From Thermoflexia bacterium (GTDB lineage: Bacteria; Chloroflexota; Anaerolineae; B4-G1; DUEL01): 64,000 nt of DNA. The stretch spans positions 2,374-66,373 of the forward strand of contig DUEL01000019.1 of assembly GCA_011192125.1 (NCBI GenBank), given 5' to 3'. This document shows, piece after piece, positions 7,468-43,528 of this stretch. The notes below the pieces were generated by a model that saw nothing but the letters and a program-made list of their open reading frames with translations, had not been told where the DNA came from and searched no databases. The stretch's first letter is position 1, and every line of letters begins with the position of its first letter. The position numbers and the translations under genes are program-made.

Positions 7468-8435
7468 AGCCCCTCCTCCGACGCGCGCAACCTCGGGTCG
7501 ATCCAGCGGTAGAACAGATCGACCAGCAAGGTGAGCAACAGGAAGGTGACACCGATGCTCAGGCCCAGCGCGGCTACCTGCTGCGCGTCTCCCTTAAGAA
7601 TCCCCTCCAGCATCGCCTGCCCGACCCCCGGCCAGGAGAAGAAGACCTCGACCACGGGCAGGCTGCCGAGGGCGAAGCGGAAGGAGACGAGGATGGCGGT
7701 CAGGATGGACACCCCGGCGTTCCGCAGCGCGTGCCGCCGGAAGACGACCGTCTCCCGCAGCCCCTTGGCCCGCGCGGTGCGGATGAAATCCCGCTCCAAC
7801 ACGTCGGAGAGGGTCACGAACGTGACGCGAGTGATGTGGGCCAGCGGACGGGCGGCCAGCACCAGCGCCGGTGCCACCATCGCGGGCAACAGGCTCTGGG
7901 TCCGATGGAGGCTGATCCCGTAGGCAGGGAACAGGCCCACGCCGGTCCGCTGGTAGAAGCGAATGTCGATCACCTGCAACAGGAGGGCGAGGAAGAAACT
8001 GGGGATGGAGATGCCGATCACGGTGAGCGTAAGCGTGGGAAGCGCGAAGGGAGAACGTCGCCAGGCGGCAGCCAACCCCCCGGCGACCACGCCGAGGATC
8101 GTTGCGACGCCGACGCCGGTCAGCAACAACCGCCAACTGGCGGGATAGGTCGTGGTCAGAACGGTCCCGAGCGCGTACCTCAGATCGCCCCGCAGGAGAC
8201 CCCCGAAGAAATCGACCGTAGCCCCCAGCGCCGGCCCGACCTGCGTCCAGACACTGCGAGGCTCCCCGGCGGACATCGAGTTGGTCCGCAAGCCCACGCC
8301 CAGAAAGCAGAAATAGACGATGGCAAAAGCCACGGCGGCGATGAAGGCCAGCCGCCGCGCCAACAGGGCCAGGAGGTCAACGAGGATCGAGTGTCGCTCG
8401 GCGTCGCGGGAAACGGGCCGCATCACATCTTTCAA
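7464..8435 (-). CDS. OppB/DppB-type ABC transporter permease
   Basis: 323 aa. IRTARAKGLRETVVFRRHALRNAGVSILT and C-terminal LVDLFYRWIDPRLR. 4-nt ATGA overlap with the downstream permease-M28 gene. Confidence 0.9.
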   Translation of the reverse strand: MKDVMRPVSRDAERHSILVDLLALLARRLAFIAAVAFAIVYFCFLGVGLRTNSMSAGEPRSVWTQVGPALGATVDFFGGLLRGDLRYALGTVLTTTYPASWRLLLTGVGVATILGVVAGGLAAAWRRSPFALPTLTLTVIGISIPSFFLALLLQVIDIRFYQRTGVGLFPAYGISLHRTQSLLPAMVAPALVLAARPLAHITRVTFVTLSDVLERDFIRTARAKGLRETVVFRRHALRNAGVSILTAILVSFRFALGSLPVVEVFFSWPGVGQAMLEGILKGDAQQVAALGLSIGVTFLLLTLLVDLFYRWIDPRLRASEEGL

Positions 8436-8450
8436 CTACCCTTGCCCCCC

Positions 8451-9503
8451 TCACGGTGTCGGCGTGGGAGTGGGCGTAGGCGTAGGCGTGGGCGTAGGCG
8501 TGGATGCGGGAGTGGGTGTGAAAGTAGGGGTGGGTGTGGACGTGGGCGACGCGGTGGGCGTCGGCGTGGGGGTGGGCGTGAACGTCGAGGTCGGCGTCGG
8601 CGAGGCGGTCGGCGAAAGAGTGACGGTCACGGAGGGCGTGGCGGTCGGCGTCGGCGTCCACGTCGGTGTGGCGGTGACCGTGGGCGTGAGGATCGGCGTC
8701 GGTGTGATCCCCACGGTCGGCGAGGGAGCAGGCGTCGACGTGTTCGTAGGCGAGGGGGTCGGGATCGGGGTCGGGGTGAGAGAGGGCGTGATCGACGGTG
8801 GCACGGTGGGCGTGGGGGTCAGCGGCGGCGGCAACGCGGGCAGGTAAAGGGGCTGCCCCAACCGGAGGAGATACCCCGTCATACAGTTGGCACGGCGGAT
8901 CGCTTCGATGGGGACCCCCAATCGATAGGAGAGGTTCCAGAGCGTGTCGCCCCGCTGGACGGTGTAGAGGACCCATCCAGAAGGCGGCCCGCAGGGAACC
9001 GGCGTGGGCGTGGCAAAGAAAGCGGACGGGAGATAGATCACCCGTCCGGGATAGATTACCTCCCCCTCCAGGCAGTTCCCTTCGGCGAGGGCAAGGACGG
9101 TCGTGCCCGCCCGCCAGGCGAGGCTATAGAGCGTGTCCCCGGGCTGAACCCAATACGGCTTCCATCCCGACGGCGGGGGGCAAGCGGGAAAGAGTATGGA
9201 AGCAACGGTCGGCGTGGGAGGCAACGGAGTGGGCGAAGGGGTAGGTTCAGGTGAGACCACGGCCACGGCGGGAGGGGTAGCGGACGGTGTTGGAACCGGC
9301 GTCGCCGTCGACGGGGGGGGCGGAGCCGTGGGGGTGAAGACGGCGACCGGCGTCCCACCCGAAGACGCCATCCGCCCCTCCATCCCCGCCAACCCCAGCA
9401 CGCCCACCAGCAGGCCGACCGACAGCAGAAGGACGAGCACCCCGGTCGCTATCTGTCGGGCTCCGGCGCTCAGGCTGCCCTCCCCCATCGAGAGACCGGT
9501 CAC
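8451..9503 (-). CDS. Membrane-anchored protein with two LysM domains and a long Pro/Thr-rich tail
   Basis: N-terminal TM helix. LysM-like WVQPGDTLYSLAWRAG...VIYLP and YTVQRGDTLWNLSYRLGVPIEAIRRAN...PLYLP. GTGA overlap with the upstream kinase stop; an alternative ATG lies at 9488. Confidence 0.85.
   Translation of the reverse strand: MTGLSMGEGSLSAGARQIATGVLVLLLSVGLLVGVLGLAGMEGRMASSGGTPVAVFTPTAPPPPSTATPVPTPSATPPAVAVVSPEPTPSPTPLPPTPTVASILFPACPPPSGWKPYWVQPGDTLYSLAWRAGTTVLALAEGNCLEGEVIYPGRVIYLPSAFFATPTPVPCGPPSGWVLYTVQRGDTLWNLSYRLGVPIEAIRRANCMTGYLLRLGQPLYLPALPPPLTPTPTVPPSITPSLTPTPIPTPSPTNTSTPAPSPTVGITPTPILTPTVTATPTWTPTPTATPSVTVTLSPTASPTPTSTFTPTPTPTPTASPTSTPTPTFTPTPASTPTPTPTPTPTPTPTP
8454..8837 (-). 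repeat. Low-complexity (ACN CCN)n region encoding the TPTPTP tail
   Basis: Residues ~223-350 of the LysM protein are almost pure P/T/S. The antisense GVGVGV ORF 8320-8847 is its shadow. Confidence 0.9.
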
Positions 9504-12175
9504 GCCCCCTCCCCCTCCTCCTCTCCGCGGTCGACCGGCAGGATGAAACTGAACGTGCTTCCGGCACCCATCTCGCTCTCCAGCCAGATTCGCCCGCCGA
9601 GCGCTTCAACCAGCGTCTTGGCGATCGCCATACCGACCCCCGTCTCCCCCAGACCAGCGATGAGGGGGCGGTCCGCCCGGTAGAACCGCTGAAACACCTT
9701 GGGTCGGTCCTCCGGGGCGATCCCTCCTCCCGTGTCGGTCACGGAGACCCGGACGTACGCGGGCAACCCCTCTTCCTCCGCCTCCTCCAGGTGCCCGGAC
9801 ACCACGATCTCCGTCCCCTCTTTCGAACACTGGCAGGCGTTGGAGAGCAGATGGAGCATGATCTGGTAGAGGGCATCCCGGTCCGCCCGCACCGGCGGCA
9901 ACGCGAGCGCCATATCCAGGCGGACGCTCAGGTCCCGCTCCCGGAAGCGGGCGGAGAGCCCCATAATGGCCTCCTCGATCACCGTAATGAGGTCCACCGG
10001 CTCCGGGCGCAGTTCGACCCGCCCGGACTCCATCGCGGTCACCTCGATGATGTCGTTCAGCAGGTCCCCCATCCGCTCGATGTTGGCCTTGACCCGCTGG
10101 AGGAACTTGCGCTGCATCTCGCCGAGAATCCCCACCGACTCCCCCAGCAGCAGGTCGGTATACCCGACGATGGAGGTCATCGGTGTGCGCAGTTCGTGGG
10201 CTAGAGAGGCGAGGATCTCGGCTCTGTTCTCCTCTTCCTCCGCTTTGCTTTGGAGAAGGACCGCGTAGCCCGACGGTCCTTCCGACCCCACCGCCAGCCG
10301 ACTCAACTCCGCCCGGATCAGATGTCCGTTCTGCTCCACGGTGATGCCGACCACCTCCTCTTCGGAATTGCCGGACATCAAGCCGTCGACAGCCTGAGCC
10401 CACAACGGGTCGGCGAAGAGAGCCCTCAGCGGCATACCACGCAACTCCTCCTGGGAGGTCCGCAATAACCGTTGGGCCCTCCCGTCGACCAGGATGATGT
10501 TCCCTCGGGCGTCGGCGACGAGGCTACCACTTGCCACGACCTCCTCCGACGCCTCCGCCTCCTTCGCCGCCTCCTGAAGGGCCTGCACTTGCTCTTCCAG
10601 CCGCTCCCGCTCCCGCTCCAACTCCGCGGCTCGCTGCTTCCATTGTTCCAATTCCTTCTCCAGGGCCTCCCGTGCCTCGGCCAGTTCCTTCAACTCTCCC
10701 TCATAGATGGCGATCTGAGCCGCCGCCTGGGCTGCCTCCCGCGCCTGTTCCTGTTCAGCCTGGAACAACTGAGCCAGCTCCTCCACCTGCTTTCGGTGGC
10801 GGGAGACCTCCTCTTCCATCTCAGCCACCCGACGGGCGAACGTCTGCGCTTCCTCGCGGGCCTGCTCCAGTTCCGACTGAAGCGAGGCGACGCTCTTGGC
10901 CCGCTCCGCCTCCTCTCGCTGCAGCGCGCCGCTCAGTTCCTCCGCTCGCTGCTCCGCCACCCGCCGAAGGTTGAGATGGGCAATCGCCACCGCCAGGGTC
11001 TGAGCGACCACCTGCGCCCGACGCTTCTCCCTCTCCGTCAACGGGCGCTTCCCGGCCGGGTTGGCCAGCACCAGCAGCCCCAACACATCCCCGTCGCTGA
11101 CCAGGGGGACCACCGCCAGAGGCCCAACCTGCTCAAAACCCAACCGCTCCAGCAGAGCGGCGGAATCCGGCTCCCGGTCTGGATCCGAGACCGTCTGCAC
11201 CTTCTTGGAACGGACCGCCCGAACCAGGACCGGGTGGTCGTCCAGCGGCACCATCATCGGCTCATCCGAGGCAGACGGGTACACGCCGATGAAACGAACC
11301 GCGGGGGCGGAGTCGACGGCGGGCACTCCCAGGGCCACGGCCTCCACACCGACGTAACGCGGGATCCGGGCAAGGGCGGCCACCAACCCCCGCTCCCCCT
11401 CCCTCGCCTCGCTCAGATGCCGCAGCAGGTCCAGCAAAGGCCGCTGATCCACGCCCTCCATCTGAACCGGACCCGGCACGCCAGCCATCGCGGTCACCTC
11501 CTGGAAGGCCACCGCGGCGACCAGAGAGACACCGACCAGATTGGCCAGCCGGACCGGGCCGGAGAGATGCGGAGTGATCGGTGAGGAGACCAACTGTACC
11601 GCGTAGGCCACCCCCCAGACGAGGAGGGCGGCAAACAGCAACGATCCACCGGGGCGCGACCAGATGACCAGCGCAACGACCGCCAGAGCGATGAGGGCCA
11701 ACGCCCAGCCGTCCCACACCCGCGCCTGCCAATACGTGTTGTACGCCACTCCCGTGGCCTCTACAGGGGGCCAGGTGACGCTGAAGAAGAGATAAACCAA
11801 CACCGTGGCGACCAGCCCCACAGCGAGGAAGCCGACCCCCAGGCGAGGATGCTGGCGGAACACCGGCAGAAACCCCCAGAGAAGGACGAAGAGGAAGATC
11901 AGATCAGCCGCCCGCTCCAGGGGGGGCAACACAACCGCCGGTCTGGGAACGACCGCTCCGGCGACCACACCGCCGAGCACCAGCGCCGCGCGGGCCAGCA
12001 GCATCCCCAGCGAGGCTCCCCAGAGCCGTCGGGCGGTCGGGTCCCCGCCGGACCGCCTCCAGTGAGCCCACGTGACCGCCAGGACAGCCTGGAGAACGAA
12101 GAGGAGAACAAGATGGTAGTAGAGATCACCAGGAGGGCGGAGGAGAAGCGATATAATCTCCCACACAAGAGGCAT
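9500..12175 (-). CDS. Sensor histidine kinase (multi-TM, GAF, long coiled coil, PAS, HisKA, HATPase)
   Basis: Start moved to ATG at 12175 (MPLVWEIISLLL, GGAAGGA SD upstream) because the track's 12712 start overlaps the upstream kinase in another frame. H-box LAHELRTPMTSIVGYTDLL; G-boxes DTGGGIAPED and GETGVGMAIAKTLV. Confidence 0.85.
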   Translation of the reverse strand: MPLVWEIISLLLRPPGDLYYHLVLLFVLQAVLAVTWAHWRRSGGDPTARRLWGASLGMLLARAALVLGGVVAGAVVPRPAVVLPPLERAADLIFLFVLLWGFLPVFRQHPRLGVGFLAVGLVATVLVYLFFSVTWPPVEATGVAYNTYWQARVWDGWALALIALAVVALVIWSRPGGSLLFAALLVWGVAYAVQLVSSPITPHLSGPVRLANLVGVSLVAAVAFQEVTAMAGVPGPVQMEGVDQRPLLDLLRHLSEAREGERGLVAALARIPRYVGVEAVALGVPAVDSAPAVRFIGVYPSASDEPMMVPLDDHPVLVRAVRSKKVQTVSDPDREPDSAALLERLGFEQVGPLAVVPLVSDGDVLGLLVLANPAGKRPLTEREKRRAQVVAQTLAVAIAHLNLRRVAEQRAEELSGALQREEAERAKSVASLQSELEQAREEAQTFARRVAEMEEEVSRHRKQVEELAQLFQAEQEQAREAAQAAAQIAIYEGELKELAEAREALEKELEQWKQRAAELERERERLEEQVQALQEAAKEAEASEEVVASGSLVADARGNIILVDGRAQRLLRTSQEELRGMPLRALFADPLWAQAVDGLMSGNSEEEVVGITVEQNGHLIRAELSRLAVGSEGPSGYAVLLQSKAEEEENRAEILASLAHELRTPMTSIVGYTDLLLGESVGILGEMQRKFLQRVKANIERMGDLLNDIIEVTAMESGRVELRPEPVDLITVIEEAIMGLSARFRERDLSVRLDMALALPPVRADRDALYQIMLHLLSNACQCSKEGTEIVVSGHLEEAEEEGLPAYVRVSVTDTGGGIAPEDRPKVFQRFYRADRPLIAGLGETGVGMAIAKTLVEALGGRIWLESEMGAGSTFSFILPVDRGEEEGEGA

Positions 12176-12243
12176 AGCCTGTCCTTCCTGACCTTGCGTT
12201 GTACTAAGATTATACCATAATATCCTGTAGAGCGACCAACGTC

Positions 12244-14628
12244 CTATCCCTGTACGCCTACCGCCTGGTCCAGATCGGGATAATCCACCCCTTCTTCCGA
12301 TGGGGAAGAGGACGGCCTGCGAATGGGGAGGAGCACCGTGAACGTGCTCCCCTCCCCAGGAGCGGAATCCACCCACACCCGTCCGCCGTGCGCTTCTGTC
12401 AGCGATCGGACGACAGCCAAACCCACCCCCAGCCCTCCCGCTTCCATCCGCAGGGGGTCTTTGGGCCGGTAGAACCGTTCCCAGATCAGGCTCTGCTCCT
12501 CGGGAGGGATCCCGATACCCGTGTCCTGGACCCATATGCGGCAGTAGCGAGCCGCCTCGTCTGATCCCTGCACCAACCCCGCCCCTACCGTGATCCGCCC
12601 GCCCGGGAACGTGTATTTCACTGCGTTGCTGACCAGGTTGGTGACGATCTGACGAATCCGTTCCGGGTCGGCCTCGATCAGCGGCAGATCGTCCTCGATC
12701 TCCAGGCTCCACTCCACCTGCCGGGATCGCATCTGGGGCACGAAGGCCTCCACCACCTCCCCCAGGATCAAGGCGAGGTCGGTCTCCTCATATTGCAGTT
12801 CCAGCCGACCACGCTCGGCCTCGGCCAGGGCGATCAGGTTATTGGCGATGGTGATCATCCGACGGGCGTTAGCGTGGATGGTCCGCACGAACCGCTGCTG
12901 AGCCGCCGTCAACCTGCCCGCCATCTGGCTGTAGAGCACCTCGGCGTAACCCAGAATGGCGGTCAACGGCGTCCGTAACTCGTGGGAGACGGTGGTGATG
13001 AACTCCCGCTTGGCCCGCTCCGCCTGAACCTCCTTGGTGATGTCCCGAAGGACAGCGACGAGGCCCATCATCTTCCCATCGTAGGGGGAACGAATGACCG
13101 CGGCGTGAACCTGGACCTGTTTCTGCTCGAGTTCGAAGAGTGTCTGAAGGGGCTCGATGGACTGGCGGAACCGGCCCCAGGCGATCTCTTGCCCCGTGGC
13201 CGAGGTCAATAACTGGGCAAGCGGGCGACCAAGGACACGCTCCCGGCTGACGCCCAGGATCCGCTCGGCAGCGGCGTTGACCCGCACCGCCCGCCCCTCC
13301 TCGTCGGCCACGATGATCCCCTCGGCGATGCTCTCCAAAACGGCCTCCAGCCAGCGTCCTTCCCGCTCCCGGGCCTCCAGCGCCCTCTTGAGTTCCTGGG
13401 CCTGCTCCTCGAGTTGCCGATACAGGCGGACGTTCTCTACGGCGGCAGCGATCTGCGCCCCGATCGCATCACACAACCGGGCTTCCTTCATACCGAAGGG
13501 CCGCTTGCTCCGATCGTTGCCCACCAGGAGCAAGCCCATCACGCGCTGCTCCCGCATCAAGGGCTGCAGGATCAACGGCCCCTCATCGCTCGCTCCGAGC
13601 ACCTCGTACAACGGTCGGATCCTGGAGGGATGGGCCCACGAGTTGACCATCAGTTGCTTCTTCCGCCGCATCACGTGCTGGAGCAAGGTATGCTGGGAAA
13701 GAGAGACCAGCCGTGGCTGGACTTCTCCTCGCCGCTGGAGCGGCACGTACTGAGCCACAAGCCGAAGATGTCCGACATCCTCGCCCCGCAGGAGGATCGC
13801 CACCCGATCCGCGTCCAGCGCATGGGCGACGTTTTCCGCCACCCGGGAGAGCGTCCCCTCCAGATCGAACGGCCGCTCCAATGCCTTGCCGACATCCAGC
13901 AGAAAGAGCAACTCCTGGGTCTGCCGAAGCGCGCCCTCGCTCAACGCCTCCAATTCGGTCCGGTAGGCCCACAGATCCTGCAGCGCAGCCCTGTAGACCG
14001 AGACGGCCAGCAACGGATAGCCGATCAGGTTGACCACCCGACCCAGACCAACCAGGTCGAAAAGGACGAGGCTGTTCCCCACCGCGATGAAAGCGAACGC
14101 GACGGCGGGCAAGAAATATCCCAGTCGACGGCGGTTGACCCAGTACAGGACCGCCGCCGCCAGGGCCAAGCCCACTCCCCACAGATCCCACAGAGGCTGC
14201 TGCCAGAAAGCAAGGTAGGAGAAAGCGGGCGTCGCGCTCAGCGTTCGAGACCACGAAGGAAGGAAGAAGAGCGTCGCTCCTACAACGGCGATCAGACTGC
14301 CGACGAGGAACAGCCGCGCCCCCCGTCGTCCGAGGAAGGGGGCCAGAAACGCCCAGACCATCAAGGTCAGGCTAACCACCTCCAGCGCGTACAACAACGG
14401 CGCCAGCAGCGCGTCCCCCAGCCAGCCGCCGATCAGAAGAGGGACCCGCAACAACACCAGGACAGCAAACGACCAGAGAAGCCGACGCTGATCGGGATTG
14501 CCGGTATGGCGATACTCCGTGAAAGCAATCCCGACGGCCGCCTCCAGAGTCAGAAGAATCAGGAAGTGGTAGACCGAGGAACCTGGTCCGGTAGACAGAA
14601 GATCGAGGATCTCCTGGATCTCCCCCAC
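12244..14628 (-). CDS. Sensor histidine kinase (multi-TM, GAF, PAS, HisKA, HATPase)
   Basis: 794 aa. H-box SHELRTPLTAILGYAEVL, NLVSNAVKYT, DTGIGIPPEE, GGLGVGLAVV. The N-terminal membrane sensor is paralogous to that of 9500-12175. Confidence 0.9.
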   Translation of the reverse strand: MGEIQEILDLLSTGPGSSVYHFLILLTLEAAVGIAFTEYRHTGNPDQRRLLWSFAVLVLLRVPLLIGGWLGDALLAPLLYALEVVSLTLMVWAFLAPFLGRRGARLFLVGSLIAVVGATLFFLPSWSRTLSATPAFSYLAFWQQPLWDLWGVGLALAAAVLYWVNRRRLGYFLPAVAFAFIAVGNSLVLFDLVGLGRVVNLIGYPLLAVSVYRAALQDLWAYRTELEALSEGALRQTQELLFLLDVGKALERPFDLEGTLSRVAENVAHALDADRVAILLRGEDVGHLRLVAQYVPLQRRGEVQPRLVSLSQHTLLQHVMRRKKQLMVNSWAHPSRIRPLYEVLGASDEGPLILQPLMREQRVMGLLLVGNDRSKRPFGMKEARLCDAIGAQIAAAVENVRLYRQLEEQAQELKRALEAREREGRWLEAVLESIAEGIIVADEEGRAVRVNAAAERILGVSRERVLGRPLAQLLTSATGQEIAWGRFRQSIEPLQTLFELEQKQVQVHAAVIRSPYDGKMMGLVAVLRDITKEVQAERAKREFITTVSHELRTPLTAILGYAEVLYSQMAGRLTAAQQRFVRTIHANARRMITIANNLIALAEAERGRLELQYEETDLALILGEVVEAFVPQMRSRQVEWSLEIEDDLPLIEADPERIRQIVTNLVSNAVKYTFPGGRITVGAGLVQGSDEAARYCRIWVQDTGIGIPPEEQSLIWERFYRPKDPLRMEAGGLGVGLAVVRSLTEAHGGRVWVDSAPGEGSTFTVLLPIRRPSSSPSEEGVDYPDLDQAVGVQG

Positions 14629-18050: not shown

Positions 18051-18750
18051 TCTTAACGACGATCGAGAGGCCCGGCGGAGCGATCGATATCGCCTTCCGC
18101 GTCACCCGGCATCGGTAGGCGTAGACCTCTACTCCCTGAGCGGCCGCCTCCGCCAGCATACGGGCGAAGGCGGGGTCGGTACGACCGTTGGGGGCGAAGG
18201 CCCTCGCATCGGGTCGCTGGACGACGAAGACCACCGCCGCCCGATGGCCCTCCCGGACCAAAGTGATCAGGTCCTCCAGATGACGTCGACCGCGCCCGGT
18301 CGGCGCGTCGGGGAAGAGCGCCACCCCATCCTCAACCAGCGTCACCGACTTGGCCTCCACCCAGCAGGTCCCCCACGCGCCCTCCAGCCGGAAGTCGATC
18401 CGGCTCCCCCCGTGCCGGACCTCCCGCGCGACGCGGGTCACGCCAGCGAAAGGGGCCAACCGACCGGCCGCGACCGCCTCGGCGAAGAGAGGGTTGGGCA
18501 ACCGAGCGTCCACCGACACAAGGACCCCAGCGTGGGCCACCAAAAGGAGGTCATACGGGGTGCGCCTCCCGGGCGAGGAACGGGGCACCAGATAACAACG
18601 CCGTCCAGGGACCAGCAGTCCGCCCAAACGGCCAGAATTGGGCAGATGGGCCGCCTCAACGCGCCCATCGACCTCGACGGCGACCCGAAAGCGGTTCTCC
18701 CGCCGAACGAAACGGCCTTCGACGGTCCGTGGCAGTTCCATCGGCCTCAC
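18046..18750 (-). CDS. sfsA: Sugar fermentation stimulation protein A homolog
   Basis: 234 aa. GRFVRRENRFRVAVEVDG...AHLPNSGRL...VEAKSVTLVEDGVALFPDAPTGRGRRHLEDL is typical SfsA. Confidence 0.9.
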   Translation of the reverse strand: MRPMELPRTVEGRFVRRENRFRVAVEVDGRVEAAHLPNSGRLGGLLVPGRRCYLVPRSSPGRRTPYDLLLVAHAGVLVSVDARLPNPLFAEAVAAGRLAPFAGVTRVAREVRHGGSRIDFRLEGAWGTCWVEAKSVTLVEDGVALFPDAPTGRGRRHLEDLITLVREGHRAAVVFVVQRPDARAFAPNGRTDPAFARMLAEAAAQGVEVYAYRCRVTRKAISIAPPGLSIVVKT

Positions 18751-20312
18751 GGGACAGGAGCGTCAGATGCCGCCCGTGGCAGCCAGAACCAGAAAGTGGA
18801 ACCCTTCCCCACTTCGCTCTCGACCCCCACGTGTCCTCCGTGCCGCTCCACCAGCGCGCGGACGATCGAGAGACCCAGGCCAACACCTCCCCTCCGACCC
18901 CCCGCTCCATCTACTCTGTAGAATCGCTCGAACAGCCGAGTCTGCGCCTCCGCTGGGATGCCCGGCCCGTTATCCACCACGGAAATGCGCACGCCGTCGC
19001 CCTCCTCACAGGCAACGACCCCAATCCGTCCTCCGGCCTGCGTGTACTTCACCGCATTCTCGATCAAATTGACCAGCACCCTCTGCAGATCCACACACTC
19101 CATCCGAAGCGCGGGTAAAGCGGTCGGGACATCGATCTCCAAAGCCTGTCCTTTCGCTTCGATCCGCTTGGACAGGTCATCGACCACGCTATCGATCACC
19201 GGCCTCAAATCGCACGAGGCTTCTGCAATGCGGTCCTCCTCCCCCTCTATCCGAGCCAGGTCAAGCAGATGGTCGATCAGAGCATACATCCGCCGCACGC
19301 CGGTGAGAATCCCCATCACACACCGCTCGGCCGTCTCCGAGAGATCTCCCTCCTGCAACAGAACCTCGGCAAAGCCCTGCACGTAGGCAAGAGGGCTGCG
19401 CAGATCGTGCGAGGTCGCGGCAACGACCTGTGATTTCAACTCGTCGAGGCGGCGCAACCGCGTGACGTCGTGCAGCCGCAAGACGATGCCCAGGCCGGGA
19501 ACCGGAACCAGGGCTGCGTCGAACACGGCCTTCCCTTCCAGATCGACCTCGATCTGCTGGACCTCACCCCGTTCGAGCGCGATTTGAAAGGCCGTGGTCA
19601 CCTCAGCAACGCCGACCACCTCGCGCAGAGGTCGATCGAGCACATCGCTGCCCAACAGCGCCCGCGCCTGCTCGTTAGCGAGCGTCACCCGGCCAGAGGT
19701 ATCGAGCAGGAGGACGGGGTCCGGCAGGGCGGCGATGAGCCCGCGCAGGATCCGCTGCTCACGGCGCATCGCATCGTGGAGGCGGGCGTTGGCCACCGCG
19801 ACGGCGACCTGGGCGGCGACCACCTCGGCGAGCAGCGTGTCATCGAGTCCGAAGAACCCTCGCTGTGTGTGCTGCAACGTCATCACACCGACCACCTCCC
19901 CCCGGTGGACCAGAGGCACGGCGATGGCGGACCCCGCCTCCTTCCGATCGCCGGGAAAACGGTGCCAACGTCCGTCCTTCTTCGTATCAGCCGCCAGGGC
20001 GACCTGCCGATGGCGCACCGCCCAACCCGCCAGGCCCCTCTCCATCACCTGCTCGACACGCCACGCGAACTCCTCCTCATCGAGCCCTCGCTGCGCCCCG
20101 ATCTGCCGGATCACCCGCCCGGCGCGGTCAAGAAGGAACAACGACCCCCGCTCCGCCCCCAGCGCTTCAATGGTCTGGGCGAGGGCTTCGTTCAGCGTCA
20201 TCTCCAGATCGAGGCTGGTCGAACACCGACGCAGAATTTTATAGAGAAGGCTAGCGAGATCCTCGGCGACGGGAGCCGGAAGGTCATCCCCTCTCCACTG
20301 TAACATACCCAT
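18747..20312 (-). CDS. Sensor histidine kinase (GAF, PAS, HisKA, HATPase)
   Basis: Start set to ATG at 20312 (MGMLQW) behind GGGAGGAAGG. H-box TSHDLRSPLAYVQGFAEVL, ENAVKYTQAGG, DNGPGIPAEA, GGVGLGLSIVRALV. Confidence 0.85.
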   Translation of the reverse strand: MGMLQWRGDDLPAPVAEDLASLLYKILRRCSTSLDLEMTLNEALAQTIEALGAERGSLFLLDRAGRVIRQIGAQRGLDEEEFAWRVEQVMERGLAGWAVRHRQVALAADTKKDGRWHRFPGDRKEAGSAIAVPLVHRGEVVGVMTLQHTQRGFFGLDDTLLAEVVAAQVAVAVANARLHDAMRREQRILRGLIAALPDPVLLLDTSGRVTLANEQARALLGSDVLDRPLREVVGVAEVTTAFQIALERGEVQQIEVDLEGKAVFDAALVPVPGLGIVLRLHDVTRLRRLDELKSQVVAATSHDLRSPLAYVQGFAEVLLQEGDLSETAERCVMGILTGVRRMYALIDHLLDLARIEGEEDRIAEASCDLRPVIDSVVDDLSKRIEAKGQALEIDVPTALPALRMECVDLQRVLVNLIENAVKYTQAGGRIGVVACEEGDGVRISVVDNGPGIPAEAQTRLFERFYRVDGAGGRRGGVGLGLSIVRALVERHGGHVGVESEVGKGSTFWFWLPRAASDAPVP

Positions 20313-20551
20313 CAGGCCTTCCTCCCTGCAAAGCCACACTCCAACCCTTGCACCACACCGCGGTCCACATACCACAGCAACCGCCCGGATCGAGGCTGTA
20401 TCCGTTCTGCCGGCAGGGCTGCCCCGTCGAGTGCGCGGGCCAGGGCCTCCGCCTTATCCCGCCCCGCCACCAGAAAGAGCACCTCCGCGTCTGCCACTTC
20501 TTCCCTCCTCCATCTGCGCCATAGAGACACAGAGGACACAGCGGCTCTCAA
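20312..20551 (-). pseudogene. pgl: C-terminal remnant of 6-phosphogluconolactonase (about the last 55 aa)
   Basis: AEVLFLVAGRDKAEALARALDGAALPAERIQPRSGRLLWYVDRGVV matches the conserved Pgl/DevB C-terminus. The N-terminal residues of the ORF (SSVSLWRRW) are encoded by the palindromic repeat at 20521-20588. Its stop overlaps the kinase ATG. Confidence 0.55.
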
Positions 20552-37928: not shown

Positions 37929-39296
37929 ATGTGCAAGGAGATCTACACCGACATCGAGGCCCACAAGACCGCCTATCTCGTCCGTTTGAAGCGTCTCCTG
38001 ACCCAGCCCAGCATCTCTTCTCAGGGTGTAGGGTTAGGCGAGACCGCCGACCTGCTGACCGGGATGCTGCGGTCCCTCGGCTTCAAGGTCGAGCAGGTCC
38101 CCATCGACGGCCCACCGGTCATCGTGGCCCAGATGGAGGGGAAACGACCCGAGAGGCTGCTTTTCTACAACCATTACGACGTCCAGCCGGTGGACCCGCT
38201 GGAGGAGTGGACCACCCCACCCTTCGAACCGACGGTTCGGGAGGGGAAACTCTACGCTCGGGGCGCGGCGGACAACAAAGGGGCCATCGCCGCCCGCCTG
38301 GGCGCCATCGAATCCTACCTGCGCGTCCACGGCTCCCTGCCGGTGGGATTGACCTGGATCATCGAGGGTGAGGAGGAGATCGGCAGCCCCCACCTTCACC
38401 AGTTTGTCGAATCCCAGCGCGAACTCCTGGAAGGCGCGATCGGATGCGTGTGGGAGGCAGGAGGGAAAAACGCCCGCGACCGGTACGAGATCGCTCTGGG
38501 ATGCAAGGGGATGCTGTACCTGGAACTGCGGGTGAAGGGAGCTGCCCGCGACCTCCATTCGGCGATGGCTGCCACCGTCGTCAACCCCGCCTGGCGGCTA
38601 CTGTGGGCGTTGAACAGCATCAAGGGGCCCGACGGAGCGATCCGCATTCCAGGGTTCTACGACGACGTCCGCCCTCCCACCGACGCCCAACGTCAGGCCC
38701 TCGCCGAATGGGAATATCCTGAGGAAGAGGTGCGCGCTCTTCTTGGAATCGACGCGTTCCTGGATGGACTGACCGGTATGGCGCTGAAAGAACGGCTCAT
38801 CTTCGCCCCAACCTGCAACATCGACGGTTTCCACGCAGGATACGCCGGTCCGGGCTCGAAGACGGTCCTCCCCGCCAGAGCCTACGCTAAGGTGGACTTC
38901 CGCCTAGTGCCCGACCAGCGACCTGAACGCGTGGTGGAGCAACTGAGAGAGCATCTGGACAGAGCAGGCTTCGACGATGTGGAGATCGTCTGGTGGAATG
39001 GAGAGGCACCGGCAGCGGGGGATCCAGACCATCCATTCGTGAAGGTCGCGGTACGTACAGCAGAGGTGGTTTACGGCCACCGCCCAACGGTGCTGCCGAT
39101 GATGGCCGGCACCGGGCCGGTGCATCTCCTGTGCGGGCAGTTTGGGGTACCGATCGTGACCGCCGGTATCGGCTATGCCGATTCCCGGGGCCACGCTCCT
39201 AATGAGAACATCCGACTTGAGGATTTCTACGAAGGGGTCCGCTACATCGCCACGCTGTTGGCCTATCTCGATCGGTCCGATCCTGAACGGCTATGA
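37929..39296 (+). CDS. M20-family dipeptidase/acylase
   Basis: 455 aa. NHYDVQPVDPLEEWTTPPFEPTVREGKLYARGAADNKG is typical M20. Confidence 0.85.
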   Translation: MCKEIYTDIEAHKTAYLVRLKRLLTQPSISSQGVGLGETADLLTGMLRSLGFKVEQVPIDGPPVIVAQMEGKRPERLLFYNHYDVQPVDPLEEWTTPPFEPTVREGKLYARGAADNKGAIAARLGAIESYLRVHGSLPVGLTWIIEGEEEIGSPHLHQFVESQRELLEGAIGCVWEAGGKNARDRYEIALGCKGMLYLELRVKGAARDLHSAMAATVVNPAWRLLWALNSIKGPDGAIRIPGFYDDVRPPTDAQRQALAEWEYPEEEVRALLGIDAFLDGLTGMALKERLIFAPTCNIDGFHAGYAGPGSKTVLPARAYAKVDFRLVPDQRPERVVEQLREHLDRAGFDDVEIVWWNGEAPAAGDPDHPFVKVAVRTAEVVYGHRPTVLPMMAGTGPVHLLCGQFGVPIVTAGIGYADSRGHAPNENIRLEDFYEGVRYIATLLAYLDRSDPERL

Positions 39297-39563
39297 ACGG
39301 AGGGGGTGACGCTCGGGCACATTTCGCTTCCAGGCACGCAGAAGAAGCGATACCTCGCGATAGAGGCCCAAGTCCGTCCCCAGCCAGGTGGTCAGTTCCT
39401 GCCTCGTTGGCCGATTGCCGTTCCAGTCCCCACCTGTGGCACGCTCGGCGACCAGCTGGAGGAAACGGCTCCGCCAGGGCTCGCTCAAGGAAAACAGGTC
39501 ATCCACCAGCCTCTCAATATCTTTCTGCACGCTCAACCACCTGATCACGTCTCCTCCGATCAA
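39291..39563 (-). CDS. Hypothetical Trp-rich 90-aa protein
   Basis: Natural-looking composition (DIERLVDDLFSLSEPWRSRFLQLVAERATGGDWNG...). Only TTG/GTG starts are available, and I recognise no family. Confidence 0.4.
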   Translation of the reverse strand: MIGGDVIRWLSVQKDIERLVDDLFSLSEPWRSRFLQLVAERATGGDWNGNRPTRQELTTWLGTDLGLYREVSLLLRAWKRNVPERHPLRS

Positions 39564-39662
39564 GCCGCACTGGCAGCAGAGCGGGCTTGCCCCCGTCAGA
39601 CAGCGAGGGCAAACCCATCATCTCCCGTGGTGGCGATAGGAGAGCAACTAAAAGGCTGATGC

Positions 39663-39869
39663 TCAGATCCCACAAGCGACCGCCTGGCACAGAGCGCCAG
39701 CCAGCGCCTCCACCGTATCGGCCCGCACCGAGAGCACTGCTCGCCGTTCCGCCTCTGTCAAATCCAGCGAAGCGAGGACCTCACCTCGCTGACCGTTCAA
39801 CAACCGGCCACGAAAAGCGGGGTCCGTCAACGCTGCCCATACTAGCTCATCGATCTTCCGCGTCGGCAT
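39663..39869 (-). CDS. Small NHLP/LigA-like protein (68 aa) ending in CQAVACGI
   Basis: ATG at 39869 behind AAGGAG. IDELVWAALTDPAFRGRLLNGQRGEVLASLDLTEAERRAVLSV resembles NHLP-clan / LigA-like small proteins. Confidence 0.65.
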   Translation of the reverse strand: MPTRKIDELVWAALTDPAFRGRLLNGQRGEVLASLDLTEAERRAVLSVRADTVEALAGALCQAVACGI

Positions 39870-39916
39870 GGGTACTCCTTTCAACGCAAACTCCCCTTAT
39901 ATATGAGCGTTATCCG

Positions 39917-40177
39917 TTAGGTCGCGCTGCTCCCACCGCCTACGGGCGGGTTCGCCAATAGACCCAGATCCCCGATCCCTGTCGCGCTGCTCCCACCGCC
40001 TACGGGCGGGTTCGCCAGCAGGTCCGAGCCCCCGACCCCCGTCGCGCTGCTCCCACCACCTACGGGCGGGTTGGCCAGCAATCCTACCGAGCGCGAATCA
40101 CCGATGCCCAGCACGAAGGCTGCCACCAGCACCGTCACGACGACGATCACTACAAACCGGCCCAGTCCTCTGTCCAT
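39917..40177 (-). CDS. Exported 86-aa peptide with three tandem LLANPPVGGGSSATG repeats
   Basis: Strong SD AAGGAGGGAGGG. N-terminal hydrophobic signal/anchor FVVIVVVTVLVAAFVLG. Three in-frame 20-codon repeats run to the stop codon. Confidence 0.7.
   Translation of the reverse strand: MDRGLGRFVVIVVVTVLVAAFVLGIGDSRSVGLLANPPVGGGSSATGVGGSDLLANPPVGGGSSATGIGDLGLLANPPVGGGSSAT
39921..40077 (-). repeat. 3 x 60-bp tandem repeat (37-bp conserved core + ~23-bp variable linker)
   Basis: Cores at 39921-39957, 39981-40017 and 40041-40077. Copies 1 and 2 are identical over 37 nt; copy 3 differs at 2 positions. Confidence 0.9.
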
Positions 40178-40216
40178 CTTACCCTCCCTCCTTACACTGC
40201 TGATAAGTTTCTCCGC

Positions 40217-40255
40217 TTTATATTATCAGGGAAACCTCTGAACAAACCTCTGAAC
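40217..40255 (-). promoter_or_regulatory. Candidate promoter of the repeat-peptide gene with a perfect tandem 12-mer over the -35
   Basis: Minus strand: GTTCAGAGGTTT x2 (40255-40232), -35 TTGTTC (40245-40240), 17-nt spacer, -10 TATAAA (40222-40217). The inverted repeat CTGATAA-N16-TTATCAG (40229-40200) spans the -10. Confidence 0.5.
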
Positions 40256-40280
40256 ATAAAAGGCCGCCGTTTGGCGGCCT
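40256..40280 (-). terminator. Rho-independent terminator after the STAND/SARP regulator gene
   Basis: Minus strand: AGGCCGCC-AAAC-GGCGGCCT followed by TTTTAT. Confidence 0.7.
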
Positions 40281-40318
40281 CCTAAATAGAGATGGTAGTT
40301 TACATCTTGGAGAAGGGG

Positions 40319-43300
40319 TTAACCCGCCGCCTTTCCAGCGATTTCCCAAAACAATGATTCTGTCTCCTCCGAGGGTTCGACACCCAGTTCACTAAGGAGG
40401 ATTTCCCGACATTGATGGTACTGCTTGATCGCCTCGGAACGTCGGCCTGCCTCCTTGTAGCAGAGCATGATCTGCCGGTGCACGTCTTCCCGCAACCTGT
40501 CCACCTCAAGCGCGCGTCGGAACCATTCGATGGCCTCCTCCCACTCTCGCCGTGCTTCATGGCAGCGCCCCACCCCGATCAGCGCCTCTACGTACATCTG
40601 CCGGAGGACCTCTCGCTTCGGGACACACCACAGCCGGCTCACCTCAGGCAGGAAATCCCCTTGGTAGAGCGTCACCGCCCGCCGCCACAGATCCTCCGCC
40701 CGCCAATCGTGATACGGCAACAGCCGTGCCTGTTCGACCAACGCCTCGAACTCCTCCACGTCGAACCAATAATCCACATCGCCCAACCGATACCGCCCCT
40801 CCTCTACTACGATGACCCCCTCCCCCACCGCTCGACGGATCCGATAGAGGGTCGAATGAAAATTGTCGATCATCTTTTTCGGGGGCAGGTCGGGCCAGAA
40901 GACCAGGCCGATCGCATCCCTCTCAACAGGGCCGTTTAACACGATGTAGAAAAACAACTCTTTTGCCATCGCTGCTCGCCAGTCGGACGAGGAGACCTCC
41001 TCCCCATCCCGAACGACCCGTCCCCCCCCCAATGCGTAGATCTCCAACCGCCCTCCTACTTCCTCTTTTTCTTCCGAGGGACCTGCGGATCGAATCCAAG
41101 CCACGGCGAAAGACCTCAGACGGTTGATCTTCTCGAGAGTTTCCTGGCAATTCAACCCTTCTGCAACACCCAACTGGAGGAGATCCTCCGCGTGCTGCCC
41201 CTCCACCACGATAGATTGATCAGTGCCGATCTCCGCTGCCAAAGCCAGGGCTTTCTCCAACGCCCCCAACGCCTCCTCCTGCCTCCCGGCCCTCAGGAAG
41301 GCCTTTGCCAGCAAGAAGCGAGCCCGGGCCGCCTCTCGCCTCGCTCCTCGTCGCTCCAAGAACCGAATCGCCTTCGCAAGAAGATCGATGCCTGCCTCGA
41401 CCTGCCCATCTTCCACCAGCAGGATCCCCTCTGCCAGAGGCAACAACCCGTGCTTCTCCAGATCCAGGCCCTCCCCCTCCACCATCTGCCGGGCTTGTCC
41501 CAGCAGGGCAAACGCCCGCGTCCGCTGTCCTCGCCAGCGGTACATATCTGCCCGTGCCAGGAGAATGTAGAAGGCCAGTCCAGGCTCACTCTTCCAGGCG
41601 ATCTGCCATCCGGCGTGATAGAGCGGCTCCGCGCGGTCATACGCCCCAATGTCTCGATACAGATCTGCCATTCCCACCAGAACGTTGGCCTGAAGCCAGG
41701 ACACGTTCCCTCGCCGGGCGGCAGCCAAACCCTCCTCATATAAAGCCAGCGCTTCGCGATACTCCCCTCGCACATAGTGAAGCCATCCCAGATTGTTCAA
41801 CACCCCAGCCAACTGGGCAGGCGCTCCTAGCCGCCGAGCGATGGCGAGGGCTTCGTTCAAACGGGAGGCAGCTTCTTCCAGCCGCCCCTGCGTGAAAAAG
41901 GCCAAGGTCAAATCCTGCAGGAGGTTGAAAACATCATAGAGACTGCCAGCCTCCCGGAACAAAGCCAGCGCCTGCTCCAGCATCGCGATCCCTTCCGAGA
42001 GCCGCCCCAGCCCGATGTACGCGCGGCCGATGTGCCGCTGTGCGTTGGCCCGCTCGATCGTCTCCCGCTCCCCCGCTGTCTCCAACGCGGTGCGGGCCTC
42101 CTGCATCGCCTCTTGGTAGTGCCCGGTGAAAAGGTTCAACGTCGCCCGCTGATTGTAGACCTTGGCCAGACTCGCCACGTCCCCTCGGGCAAGGAACCCT
42201 GCCTCGGCGTAGGCCAACGCCCGCTGCGCCCCCTCGTAATCGTACTGATCGGTCAACAACCGACTCTGGAACAGCATCAGCCGCGGGGCCCGCTCCTTCA
42301 CATGCTCGGGCAGGCTCTCTGCCCAGCGAAGCAGCGTCTCCGTCCGCCCCCGGGTGAACCACTCCATCGCTACCTGTTCCATCAACGAGGTAGCCTCCGA
42401 ATACGCTTCTGCCGCCAAATAGTGATACACCGCCTCTTCGACATCGTCCTCCCGCTCAAACCACCGGGCAGCCAGCAGATGGAGCTCCGCATACCGTCCC
42501 GGGTCCTGACGGCGCAACCGCTGATGCAGGAAATCTCGAAACAGGCCGTGATACCGGTACACCGCTTTCGGACCCGCCCCAAAGCGGGTGACGAAAAGGT
42601 TCCGCCGCTCCACCTCCGCCAGAAACGGACCCGCGTCCTCGATCTGCAGCGCCCGACGACACAGGCGAACCGACATCTCTCGCAACACGGAGGAGGTGTA
42701 GAGGAAATACTGAACATCGGGGGGTTGCCGGTTCAACACCTCCTGAGCCAAGTACTCATAGGTCTCGGTCGTCACCCTGCCGGATGCCAGCAGCGCCGTG
42801 GGTGTCCGATCCCGCAGGAGGCCGGCTAGGAGCAACACCCCCATGATCCAACCCTCAGCGTTCGCAGCGAGGGCCTCCGCTTCCTCCGCCGAGATCTCGA
42901 TCTTCGAGAGCTCAAGAAGGTCGCGGATCTCCCCGGGGGTGAACCGAAGGTCCGGCCCCGCCAGACCGACCAACTGACGCTGGGCGACCAGCCGGGTCAC
43001 CGGGACCTCCGGCAGCACACGACTGCCGATCATCAGGTGGCAGTTCGCGGGGAGAACCTCCAGTAGGCGGTTGAGGAACCCCCTCAACCCGTAGGCACCA
43101 TCTATCTCCTCAAAGTTGTCCACTATGAGGACGAACTCGACGGCCAGATCCGCGATCTCGTTGGTCAATGCTCCAGCCACCGGCGTAGGATCGCGGAAAA
43201 TAGCGCTGGAGACCCCCTCCAGCGTGGTGAGGGTGCGTTCGCCGAAGCCAGGGAACCGCTCGGCTATGGCTCCCACCAAGTAGTTGATGAACGTGCCCAG

Positions 43301-43528
43301 GTCTCGATCCCGCTCATCAACCGTGTACCAGCAGACCGGTAACGGAGCCCGTCGGGCAAAGTCCACCAGAGCCGAGGTCTTGCCATATCCCGCCGGGGCA
43401 GAGACGATGGTCAACTTGACCCTCGCACCCTGCTCCAGAATGGAGCAAACTCGTGGTCGGTGCAGAAGGGTAGCAGGGGTAGGGATAGCCAGTTTGGATC
43501 GGATCAGGATCGGCCTGGAAGTCTCCAA
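40319..43528 (-). CDS. MalT-like STAND ATPase + TPR array + C-terminal OmpR-type wHTH/BTAD (SARP) regulator
   Basis: 1069 aa. P-loop IVSAPAGYGKTSALVDF, many TPR-like helices, and a C-terminal DVDYWFDVEEFEALVEQAR...LYQGDFLPE...ELGVEPSEET typical of BTAD. Confidence 0.85.
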   Translation of the reverse strand: METSRPILIRSKLAIPTPATLLHRPRVCSILEQGARVKLTIVSAPAGYGKTSALVDFARRAPLPVCWYTVDERDRDLGTFINYLVGAIAERFPGFGERTLTTLEGVSSAIFRDPTPVAGALTNEIADLAVEFVLIVDNFEEIDGAYGLRGFLNRLLEVLPANCHLMIGSRVLPEVPVTRLVAQRQLVGLAGPDLRFTPGEIRDLLELSKIEISAEEAEALAANAEGWIMGVLLLAGLLRDRTPTALLASGRVTTETYEYLAQEVLNRQPPDVQYFLYTSSVLREMSVRLCRRALQIEDAGPFLAEVERRNLFVTRFGAGPKAVYRYHGLFRDFLHQRLRRQDPGRYAELHLLAARWFEREDDVEEAVYHYLAAEAYSEATSLMEQVAMEWFTRGRTETLLRWAESLPEHVKERAPRLMLFQSRLLTDQYDYEGAQRALAYAEAGFLARGDVASLAKVYNQRATLNLFTGHYQEAMQEARTALETAGERETIERANAQRHIGRAYIGLGRLSEGIAMLEQALALFREAGSLYDVFNLLQDLTLAFFTQGRLEEAASRLNEALAIARRLGAPAQLAGVLNNLGWLHYVRGEYREALALYEEGLAAARRGNVSWLQANVLVGMADLYRDIGAYDRAEPLYHAGWQIAWKSEPGLAFYILLARADMYRWRGQRTRAFALLGQARQMVEGEGLDLEKHGLLPLAEGILLVEDGQVEAGIDLLAKAIRFLERRGARREAARARFLLAKAFLRAGRQEEALGALEKALALAAEIGTDQSIVVEGQHAEDLLQLGVAEGLNCQETLEKINRLRSFAVAWIRSAGPSEEKEEVGGRLEIYALGGGRVVRDGEEVSSSDWRAAMAKELFFYIVLNGPVERDAIGLVFWPDLPPKKMIDNFHSTLYRIRRAVGEGVIVVEEGRYRLGDVDYWFDVEEFEALVEQARLLPYHDWRAEDLWRRAVTLYQGDFLPEVSRLWCVPKREVLRQMYVEALIGVGRCHEARREWEEAIEWFRRALEVDRLREDVHRQIMLCYKEAGRRSEAIKQYHQCREILLSELGVEPSEETESLFWEIAGKAAG

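Follow-up and report, generated by a model that had tools for sequence, protein, structure and literature searches.

A tandemly amplified, pro-peptide-like gene next to a STAND/SARP-type regulator in Anaerolineae of the phylum Chloroflexota

Introduction

Sediments, bioreactors and hot springs are rich in filamentous Anaerolineae and Thermoflexales, which have rarely been cultured. Here, an array of 60-bp tandem repeats is considered that lies in a 64-kb stretch of DNA from a Thermoflexia bacterium (64,000 nucleotides of contig DUEL01000019.1, hereinafter the window) and belongs to a small gene encoding 86 amino acid residues. In our opinion, the reading that agrees best with the sequence comparisons and with the analogy to known systems, and to which we give about an even chance of being right, is that this gene encodes an exported, multi-copy pro-peptide controlled by the neighbouring regulator and stands first in a short operon, signalling being the likeliest role of the peptide. 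This kind of system, namely, a multi-copy exported peptide precursor beside a regulator, is already known; the peptide family, the type of regulator, the partner genes and the phylum are new.

The Repeat Array and Its Gene

The repeat gene and its parts are as follows (coordinates are those of the window):

40177..39917, minus strand: gene of the 86-aa repeat peptide, ATG at 40177, TAA at 39919-39917
40100..40177, minus strand: signal-peptide-like N-terminus, codons 1-26, with an MDRGLGR n-region, an uncharged hydrophobic stretch of 19 residues and a small-x-small site, G-I-G before D
40040..40099, minus strand: module 1, residues 27-46, DSRSVGLLANPPVGGGSSAT
39980..40039, minus strand: module 2, residues 47-66, GVGGSDLLANPPVGGGSSAT, with the 37-nt core identical to that of module 3
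39920..39979, minus strand: module 3, residues 67-86, GIGDLGLLANPPVGGGSSAT, with the stop codon immediately after it
40187..40193, minus strand: Shine-Dalgarno sequence AAGGAGG, 9 nt 5' of the ATG

The repeats were reported in a preliminary description of this DNA as 60-bp units with two identical 37-bp cores and a third core two bases different, separated by the linkers GVGGSD and GIGDLG, and the sequence agrees with all of this. The cores at 39921-39957 and 39981-40017 are identical in 37 of 37 bases, and that at 40041-40077 deviates from them in 2 bases. For positions 39921-40080, a period of 60, 2.7 copies, 89% matches and a score of 241 were obtained with Tandem Repeats Finder. An exact repeat of 37 nt at an offset of 60 nt is far beyond chance.

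The array corresponds to codons 27-86 and encodes three units of 20 residues each. The exact period of 20 codons up to the stop codon, as noted earlier, holds, and the range of 39917-40097 given with it is corrected to a slightly longer array at the protein level, 39920-40099. The complete product is composed of MDRGLGRFVVIVVVTVLVAAFVLGIG followed by DSRSVGLLANPPVGGGSSAT, GVGGSDLLANPPVGGGSSAT and GIGDLGLLANPPVGGGSSAT, and its C-terminus is ...LLANPPVGGGSSAT with the stop codon directly after it. The putative exported part contains 27% Gly and no Cys, Lys or aromatic residues and is slightly acidic (three Asp and one Arg). The GC content of the gene at codon positions 1, 2 and 3 (0.70, 0.57 and 0.76, respectively) resembles that of the neighbouring genes, and AAGGAGG-like sequences are also found 5' of the start codon in relatives.

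Selection on the Encoded Peptide

Three orthologues (P0002-P0004), all from Chloroflexi-type metagenome contigs and 69-77% identical to the query, were found in a search of 5.8 billion proteins. Together with an additional locus, L038, which was the only one added by a metagenome scan for PP[VT]GGGSSA, they share the start codon, the reading frame, the three units and the stop codon directly after ...GGGSSAT. The earlier proposal that a multi-copy peptide is encoded is therefore upheld, since all the orthologues have kept the frame, the arrangement of the copies and their termination at the stop codon. Their units show many synonymous differences both within and between genomes, and PP[V/T]GGGSSAT is invariant. 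For example, Val-Gly-Gly-Gly is written in locus L006 as GTG GGC GGG GGC, GTC GGC GGC GGC and GTC GGC GGT GGC. Nei-Gojobori counts on four sequences gave pS of about 0.6 in every segment, synonymous sites being nearly saturated, with the following ratios of nonsynonymous to synonymous differences per site (pN/pS):

Decapeptide core: 0.08
LLAN: 0.23
Linkers: 0.27
N-terminal 32 codons (signal region): 0.56

This comparison by segments, proposed together with the preliminary description, indicates that the gene is translated and under selection and that purifying selection is strongest on the core decapeptide PP[V/T]GGGSSAT (0.08 against 0.27 in the linkers). Since the synonymous sites have diverged and the peptide has been kept, selection acts on the peptide. 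Loss of the reading frame with retention of the DNA repeat had been named in advance as the pattern that would point to a non-coding element; the opposite was observed.

That alternative, according to which the array is a hairpin-bearing regulatory or recombination element of DNA or RNA and the reading frame is fortuitous, could appeal to the identity of two cores also at synonymous sites and to the CCGCC/GGCGG stem in each unit. A small hairpin in each core was indeed part of the preliminary description, and the structure CCGCC-CGTA-GGCGG is present in every unit, but the RNA- or DNA-level role suggested with it finds no support. The hairpin exists because of the Pro-Pro and Gly-Gly codons: four of its five pairs are dictated by CCN-CCN/GGN-GGN, and only 9 of the 15 units retain the fifth, which is free to vary. 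The repeat mRNA is no more stable than shuffled sequence (fold z-score of 0.08), and no Rfam match was obtained for positions 39000-40800 at E <= 1. In addition, units of orthologues vary at many synonymous sites around an invariant peptide, and single-copy relatives hold the peptide motif without any DNA repeat. A non-coding repeat is thus effectively excluded.

Peptide Family, Copy Number and Concerted Evolution

The 86-aa protein has no match in Pfam or NCBIfam. The search for its wider family was anchored on the NHLP-like protein encoded next to it (see below), and the position-equivalent small reading frame beside each NHLP-like gene was picked by eye. In this way, the operon module was found in 23 genomes that represent species of Anaerolineae, Anaerolineales and Thermoflexales (GTDB) and in further metagenome contigs. 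A profile of the family sequences then gave 23 more members, all of them single-copy and either unnamed or annotated as "hypothetical protein". About 45 relatives with one copy of the C-terminal module are known as a result, all from Anaerolineae/Thermoflexales metagenome-assembled genomes (MAGs) and all unnamed or "hypothetical protein"; the taxonomic labels of all relatives found are Anaerolineae, Anaerolineales, Thermoflexales or Chloroflexota.

A typical member is 50-70 aa long. It begins with a basic n-region and a hydrophobic stretch, continues with a short segment that varies and ends in the C-terminal module ...[hydrophobic]2-x-P-x2-3-G-G-G-S-x1-5-COOH, which is always located at the extreme C-terminus (...DGLHGLLASPHGGGSSGGG; ...GLCPVDGGGSSST; ...APCGFDGGGSGA; ...TPTALDGGGSSGC). 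Of 41 members, 39 have GG[GS] among their last 9 residues, and 40 have Pro at a distance of 6-13 residues from the C-terminal end. The 20-aa repeat of the window aligns with the entire module of single-copy relatives (GIGD-LGLLANPPVGGGSSAT versus LDGLHGLLAS-PHGGGSSGGG). Because of this alignment, the linkers, regarded earlier as variable spacers, are to be taken as the module's front part, which is less conserved (D-G-L-H-G-L-L where relatives have one copy); their lower conservation in comparison with the core, also claimed earlier, stands.

According to these alignments, the 20-aa module that defines the family has been amplified in tandem to three copies in the clade of the window. Multi-copy forms are confined to this clade: three copies are present in the window, L001-L007 and L038, and five near-identical copies (GIGDTGLLANPIGGGGSSAT) in L012, which by the identity of its regulator is the nearest outgroup. 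Wherever several copies are present, the final one terminates exactly in ...SSAT before the stop codon, and internal copies are always followed by Gly. Two further comparisons proposed with the preliminary description have thus been made; that of copy number gave three copies in orthologues, one in wider relatives and five in L012, and the search for the unit in protein databases gave the orthologues and the single-copy family of about 45.

Between copies of one genome, 3-9 of 42 nt are different (as many as 13 in comparisons with the shortened middle copy of L006), and the differences between genomes amount to 7-16. The replacement of Val by Thr, a two-base change, is found in every copy of the lineage of L001-L004, L015 and L038. 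From such data, the copies evolve partly in concert, and the identity of two cores in the window is best explained by recent homogenisation.

Some other observations concern the limits of the family. In L015, the array (about 5650-5950) contains a run of N, which is an assembly gap probably due to the repeat. L027 has only a 25-aa remnant (MENKRSELVLMTAALGYYDGGGSNA) at 5906-5983, with most of the signal and pro regions gone, and may contain a decayed copy. An exhaustive search of 1.84 billion representatives with a profile built on the repeat-peptide alignment returned only P0003 and two repetitive proteins, P0027 and P0028. One of these two consists of 2189 aa with repeats of about 100 aa, and the other of 223 aa with 'SPPIGGGTSDW' repeats; their likeness to the query is restricted to low-complexity PP-x-GGG-S/T. 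Both look like translated satellite-type repeats of eukaryotes and were judged to be spurious.

The N-Terminus and Predicted Export

In all 41 members considered, an n-region with a net charge of +1 to +4 is followed by 14-25 uncharged residues and then by a small-x-small site. In relatives, a helix-breaker and an A-x-A-type site are often seen, for example, LALGPVAPGVAA before P. The N-terminus of the 86-aa protein looks like a Sec signal peptide rather than like the leader of a peptide that is synthesized by ribosomes and modified after translation (RiPP), and its cleavage is predicted from the same features.

Other kinds of N- and C-terminal signals were considered and dropped. These are the type IV pilin signal (no G|F...E5 motif), the lipoprotein signal (no lipobox), the C-terminal sorting signal (no C-terminal transmembrane segment and no NCBIfam match) and the double-glycine leader (only 1-5 residues remain beyond GGG).

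The Adjacent Regulator and the Predicted Promoter

The following features were found upstream of the peptide gene:

40319..43528, minus strand: gene of a 1069-aa regulator with a MalT-like STAND ATPase, a TPR sensor region and a C-terminal SARP domain (Pfam, NCBIfam)
40322-41071, minus strand: SARP domain (winged helix and BTAD), residues 820-1069 of the regulator
40258..40279, minus strand: stem-loop GGCCGCC-AAAC-GGCGGCC with TTTT after it, read as the terminator of the regulator gene and adjoining the direct repeats; recognised by eye and from comparison with related loci
40236..40255, minus strand: direct repeats GTTCAGAG-GTTT-GTTCAGAG with a period of 12, candidate SARP box (Tandem Repeats Finder)
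40217..40227, minus strand: -10-like region GATAAT / TAATAT / TATAAA, proposed from comparison with relatives

The C-terminal 250 residues of the regulator (residues 2-239 of this part) align with residues 18-257 of AfsR (8k60_I, E 5e-11; 8hvr_I, E 2e-12) and also with EmbR. BTAD was recognised by Pfam with E 1.7e-23, and TPR_12/TPR_MalT and AfsR were among the other Pfam and NCBIfam matches; no RRNPPA-type match was obtained in these two databases. The peptide gene starts 142 nt past the regulator on the same strand. A homologue of the regulator is located directly upstream of the peptide gene in all sufficiently long loci except L026.

The terminator hairpin is also present in L001, L007, L012 and L017-L025, where compensatory changes have occurred in the stem (GGCTGCC/GGCAGCC, GGTTGC/GCAACC), and in the family the distance from it to the direct repeats ranges from only a few nt up to some 25 nt. 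A scanner based on consensus promoters and terminators reported nothing at this locus, the terminator hairpin included. In 20 of 29 loci, the small reading frame is preceded by a pair of GTTCAGAG-like 8-mers whose period is exactly 12, an arrangement seen in 2% of shuffled sequences; three further loci have the variant TGTAAGAG, and 2 of the 29 are truncated by contig ends. In relatives, a TAnnnT hexamer follows the end of the 3' repeat at a distance of 7-8 bp, and 8 nt separate the direct repeats of the window from GATAAT. In SARP-controlled promoters, the 3' repeat is placed 8 bp away from the -10 element, with the repeats 11 or 22 bp apart (PMC10936776).

The presence of a complete SARP domain in the regulator and of direct repeats at the promoter leads us to infer that the regulator is the activator of the operon; activation of the peptide operon by the adjacent regulator via the predicted box is the simplest interpretation of the sequence. 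The box is the only match to the GTTCAGAG direct repeats in the window. Since no second SARP-like box occurs elsewhere in these 64 kb, there is no evidence for control of the regulator by itself through such a site.

Operon Partners and Wider Neighbourhood

The peptide gene opens a row of three small genes of the same orientation, the other two being the following:

39663..39869, minus strand: second gene, 68-aa NHLP/LigA-like protein (MPTRKIDELVW...GALCQAVACGI)
39291..39563, minus strand: third gene, 90-aa four-helix protein homologous to the C-terminal domain of M78 proteins in relatives

In the loci of the family that are long enough, with the exception of L026, the gene order is the regulator, the small reading frame, one to three NHLP-like genes and finally a peptidase of the M78 (ImmA/IrrE-type) family and/or nothing but the C-terminal domain of this protein. 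This module is a conserved unit because the flanking genes differ between loci.

For the 68-aa protein, 22 relatives were found. It was matched by PF14407 (Frankia_peptide) with E 7.9e-5 and 23.3 bits at a cut-off of 48 and by NF038399 (Os1348) with E 4.3e-7 and 29.9 bits at a cut-off of 40. Its AF2 model consists of five helices (pLDDT 77), and the SonA leader, the alpha subunit of nitrile hydratase (NHase alpha) and LigA were at the top of the Foldseek results, all of them non-significant. Strong conservation of the NHLP-like proteins extends as far as an invariant Cys (...GALC[Q/G]P), after which comes a hypervariable tail of 0-12 aa, absent in some members; these proteins contain no Gly-Gly cleavage motif. 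Relatives have one to three NHLP-like paralogues, and in L008 the M78 peptidase has an extra one joined to its N-terminus. The NHLP-like protein could be a protease substrate, a ComX-like short-tail precursor or a regulatory partner.

The 90-aa protein, confidently modelled by AF2 as four helices (pLDDT 82), has no significant fold match in PDB by Foldseek and no match in Pfam or NCBIfam. The M78-related proteins occur in three forms: M78 with the C-terminal domain, M78 only (the Thermoflexales group) and the C-terminal domain only (the clade of the window and others). The peptidase part is absent from the clade of the window; L008 (6333-7277) and L010 (6872-7624) served as M78 comparison loci.

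Within about 12 kb, the neighbouring genes encode RF-1, PrmC, Sua5, S51 and M20 peptidases, a metallophosphoesterase, AFOR, an amidohydrolase, the CCA-adding enzyme and UDG. Neither in the conserved module nor within this distance was any RiPP-modifying enzyme or RiPP recognition element found. The M20 peptidase gene contains a weak 13-nt tandem repeat (38937-38966; 2.4 copies, 83% matches, score of 37), probably by chance.

At a distance of 31 kb from the operon (5017-8435, minus strand), there is a generic pair of Opp/Dpp/Nik-type ABC permeases, which scored below the NCBIfam cut-offs. The OppC-like protein of this pair (5017-7467, 816 aa) has a C-terminal Peptidase_M28 domain and looks like an unusual fusion of a permease with an aminopeptidase. 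A connection of the pair with import of the peptide is speculative. The 1070-aa product of 9500-12712 (minus strand) was checked as a possible paralogue of the regulator and rejected, as it is a GAF histidine kinase, unrelated despite the similar size; a second GAF-domain histidine kinase is encoded at 18747-20375 on the minus strand.

Proposed Mode of Action and Alternative Explanations

In the pro-peptide model that we favour, the STAND/TPR-SARP regulator would switch on the operon through the two GTTCAGAG direct repeats, which would take the place of the -35 region. The peptide would be exported by the Sec pathway, its signal peptide would be removed after approximately residue 26, and the 60-residue Gly/Ser/Pro-rich product would be cut at the invariant T-G junctions. 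Three near-identical 14-20-mers would then arise from each translation product, which means dosage amplification. The released peptides may act extracellularly, most likely as a diffusible signal, whose production, and perhaps perception, would be tied to the adjacent TPR-bearing regulator. Our confidence in these steps decreases from Sec export to control by the regulator, then to T-G cleavage and, finally, to extracellular signalling.

A number of points weigh against this model. Apart from the invariant T-G, no protease site is recognisable between the modules, and what follows GGGS is variable both in length (1-5 residues) and in sequence, which is odd if a precise free C-terminus is recognised. 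Pheromones and their receptors usually diversify as pairs, and the GGGS core has been kept through divergence at the level of orders. As a STAND/SARP protein of 1069 aa, the regulator is not an RRNPPA receptor; a peptide-binding STAND regulator was not found in the literature searched. The period of the direct repeats is 12 bp, and the canonical SARP spacing is 11 or 22. The roles of the NHLP-like protein and of the M78 C-terminal-domain protein are unexplained by the model, the 19-residue hydrophobic stretch could be an uncleaved membrane anchor, and MAG assemblies may miscount near-identical repeats, as the gap in the array of L015 illustrates. Expression, export, cleavage and release are all inferred from sequence.

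Several of these points lead to another explanation, to which we ascribe a smaller but substantial probability, namely, that the product is an unprocessed small protein of the surface or membrane, in which the N-terminal segment is a type-II anchor or is simply removed and the tail works as one piece. The tail might be, e.g., a tethered ligand or a modulator of a membrane sensor or an envelope enzyme, and additional copies would increase avidity or reach. The hydrophobic stretch (14-25 residues in the family and 19 here) is sufficient for a transmembrane helix, no obvious protease site lies between the modules, the tail beyond GGGS varies in length, and the composition of the exported part (27% Gly and no Cys, Lys or aromatic residues) suggests disorder. 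However, the module is always C-terminal, with the last copy ending in ...SSAT and internal copies always continued by Gly; single-copy relatives display canonical helix-breakers and A-x-A c-regions, as in LALGPVAPGVAA before P; and amplification of the whole module with concerted change is the pattern of a multi-product precursor.

The pattern of a multi-core RiPP precursor, recognised in the array by the preliminary description, was not confirmed, and we consider this explanation improbable. It would require modification of the Ser/Thr-rich GGGSSAT by maturases encoded elsewhere, the NHLP-like protein being a second precursor or a recognition partner. A conserved core beside more variable flanks in several copies is in accordance with it, as are the sub-threshold matches of the adjacent gene to PF14407 and NF038399, its predicted fold, loosely resembling the SonA leader, NHase alpha and LigA, and the M78 peptidase in the module of many relatives. 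On the other hand, radical-SAM, YcaO, LanB/C/M, ATP-grasp and prenyltransferase enzymes, a RiPP recognition element and a peptidase-containing ABC exporter are all missing from the module and from the surrounding 12 kb or so, and an N-terminus similar to a Sec signal would remove the peptide from cytoplasmic maturases. Furthermore, the NHLP-family scores of the neighbour are under the curated cut-offs, the NHLP-like tail after the invariant Cys has 0-12 aa and is lacking in some members, and the M78 domain is missing from the window's own clade.

Still less likely, in our estimate, is a secreted antimicrobial or bacteriocin-like peptide or some other extracellular effector, for which amplification would raise the yield. 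Such a function would fit a small, apparently exported precursor in an operon under a dedicated SARP-type activator, as regulators of this class control antibiotic clusters in Streptomyces (PMC10936776), and the NHLP-clan protein Os1348 has been linked to antibiotic activity (PMC7726476). Yet the exported part, slightly acidic and devoid of Lys, Cys and aromatic residues, is unlike typical membrane-active bacteriocins, the module contains no genes of immunity or export, and the core is conserved across orders instead of diversifying.

The pro-peptide model may be extended to a previously unrecognised peptide signalling circuit of Chloroflexota, in which the STAND/TPR-SARP activator drives, and perhaps senses via its TPR region, a Sec-exported pro-peptide, and the NHLP-like and M78-related proteins act as intracellular modulators. 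We regard this extension as a conjecture that is rather unlikely to be correct in full.

Comparison with Known Systems

The closest analogues are the propeptides of RRNPPA systems, which are 50-120 aa long, exported by Sec, encoded beside a TPR receptor gene and active through their C-terminal end, sometimes with 1-4 tandem copies of the pheromone (PMC11343458). As with tandem Phr propeptides (PMC11343458; PMC5199041), the small gene is located downstream of a TPR-containing regulator and co-oriented with it, the signal peptide is of the Sec type and the functional element C-terminal (both predicted here), and the putative mature unit is repeated in identical or slightly different copies, one to four there and one, three or five here. 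The differences are also considerable. There is no sequence homology with Phr; the partner is a STAND ATPase-TPR-SARP activator instead of an RRNPPA receptor; the hosts are Chloroflexota rather than Bacillota and their phages; the unit is a Gly/Ser/Pro-rich peptide of 10-20 aa, unlike the 5-10-mer Phr pheromone; and the operon also encodes NHLP-like and M78-related proteins. RRNPPA receptors combine a peptide-binding TPR domain with an N-terminal HTH or three-helix bundle, and their propeptides are exported by Sec, cut outside the cell to pheromones of 5-10 aa and taken up again by Opp; of the latter steps, only sequence features that agree with Sec export were seen here. Thus, of the features that define RRNPPA systems, a small propeptide gene beside a regulator is found here (the 86-aa gene), and the receptor family and the occurrence in Bacillota are not. 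Membership therefore fails on the regulator and the phylum, and what is proposed is that the peptide would work like these propeptides, not that it is one of them; the relation is analogy and not homology.

The regulator resembles SARP/AfsR proteins (PMC10936776; PDB 8k60, 8hvr), in which an OmpR-type winged helix is joined to BTAD, in that its last 250 aa align with the whole SARP domain of AfsR, and the predicted promoter resembles theirs in having two direct repeats in the place of the -35 element, with the 3' repeat 7-8 bp from the -10-like hexamer. Besides the period of the repeats (12 instead of 11/22 bp), it differs in the inverted domain order (NTPase-TPR first and SARP last, while AfsR begins with SARP), in its occurrence in Chloroflexota and in its candidate target, which is a small-peptide operon and not a biosynthetic gene cluster. 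The 68-aa neighbour is similar to the leaders of the NHLP, Nif11, Frankia_peptide and Os1348 groups (PMC2887384, PMC12353581, PMC7726476) in its helical structure, weak PF14407/NF038399 matches and loose structural resemblance. It is distinguished from NHLP/Nif11 precursors by sub-cut-off scores, the absence of the Gly-Gly motif, a 'core' of only 0-12 residues and the lack of a maturase or a peptidase-containing ABC exporter nearby.

Resemblance to multi-core RiPP precursors consists in several near-identical units between less conserved segments and in the variation of copy number among relatives. Such precursors include cyanobactin PatE, multi-core graspetides (for their families, see PMC8939145), microviridins and the Kex2-processed fungal UstA. 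Unlike them, the peptide gene has neither a linked modifying enzyme or recognition element nor conserved recognition sequences flanking the cores, and its N-terminus is similar to a signal peptide, in distinction from the cytoplasmic leaders of bacterial RiPP precursors. The Gly/Ser-rich C-terminal tail with S-A-T/S-S also resembles that of class IIb (siderophore) microcins, which we presume to be a low-complexity likeness and mention as a lead only. In class IIb microcins there are double-glycine leaders, export by ABC transporters and linked genes for a glycosyltransferase and an acyltransferase, none of which is present here.

Conclusions

No description of the peptide or the operon was found in the literature searched, where Franean1_4349, PF14407 and Os1348 gave NHLP-clan background only, and nothing was found there on peptide signalling or secreted small peptides of Anaerolineae/Thermoflexales. 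Summarizing the data obtained, a testable operon has been delineated that is conserved across the loci examined and comprises a dedicated activator, a predicted operator and a predicted exported peptide with an invariant core of 10 residues; natural variants with one, three and five copies are available. The work also adds an unnamed family of small proteins to those often overlooked by gene callers. If the peptide is modified, a new precursor family would be defined. If it is a signal, tandem pro-peptide amplification would be extended beyond Bacillota and a STAND/SARP regulator would be linked to a peptide. Should the reading as a complete circuit prove to be true, this would be the first peptide pheromone system of Chloroflexota that is of neither the RRNPPA nor the Agr type, and also the first to use a STAND-type receptor.

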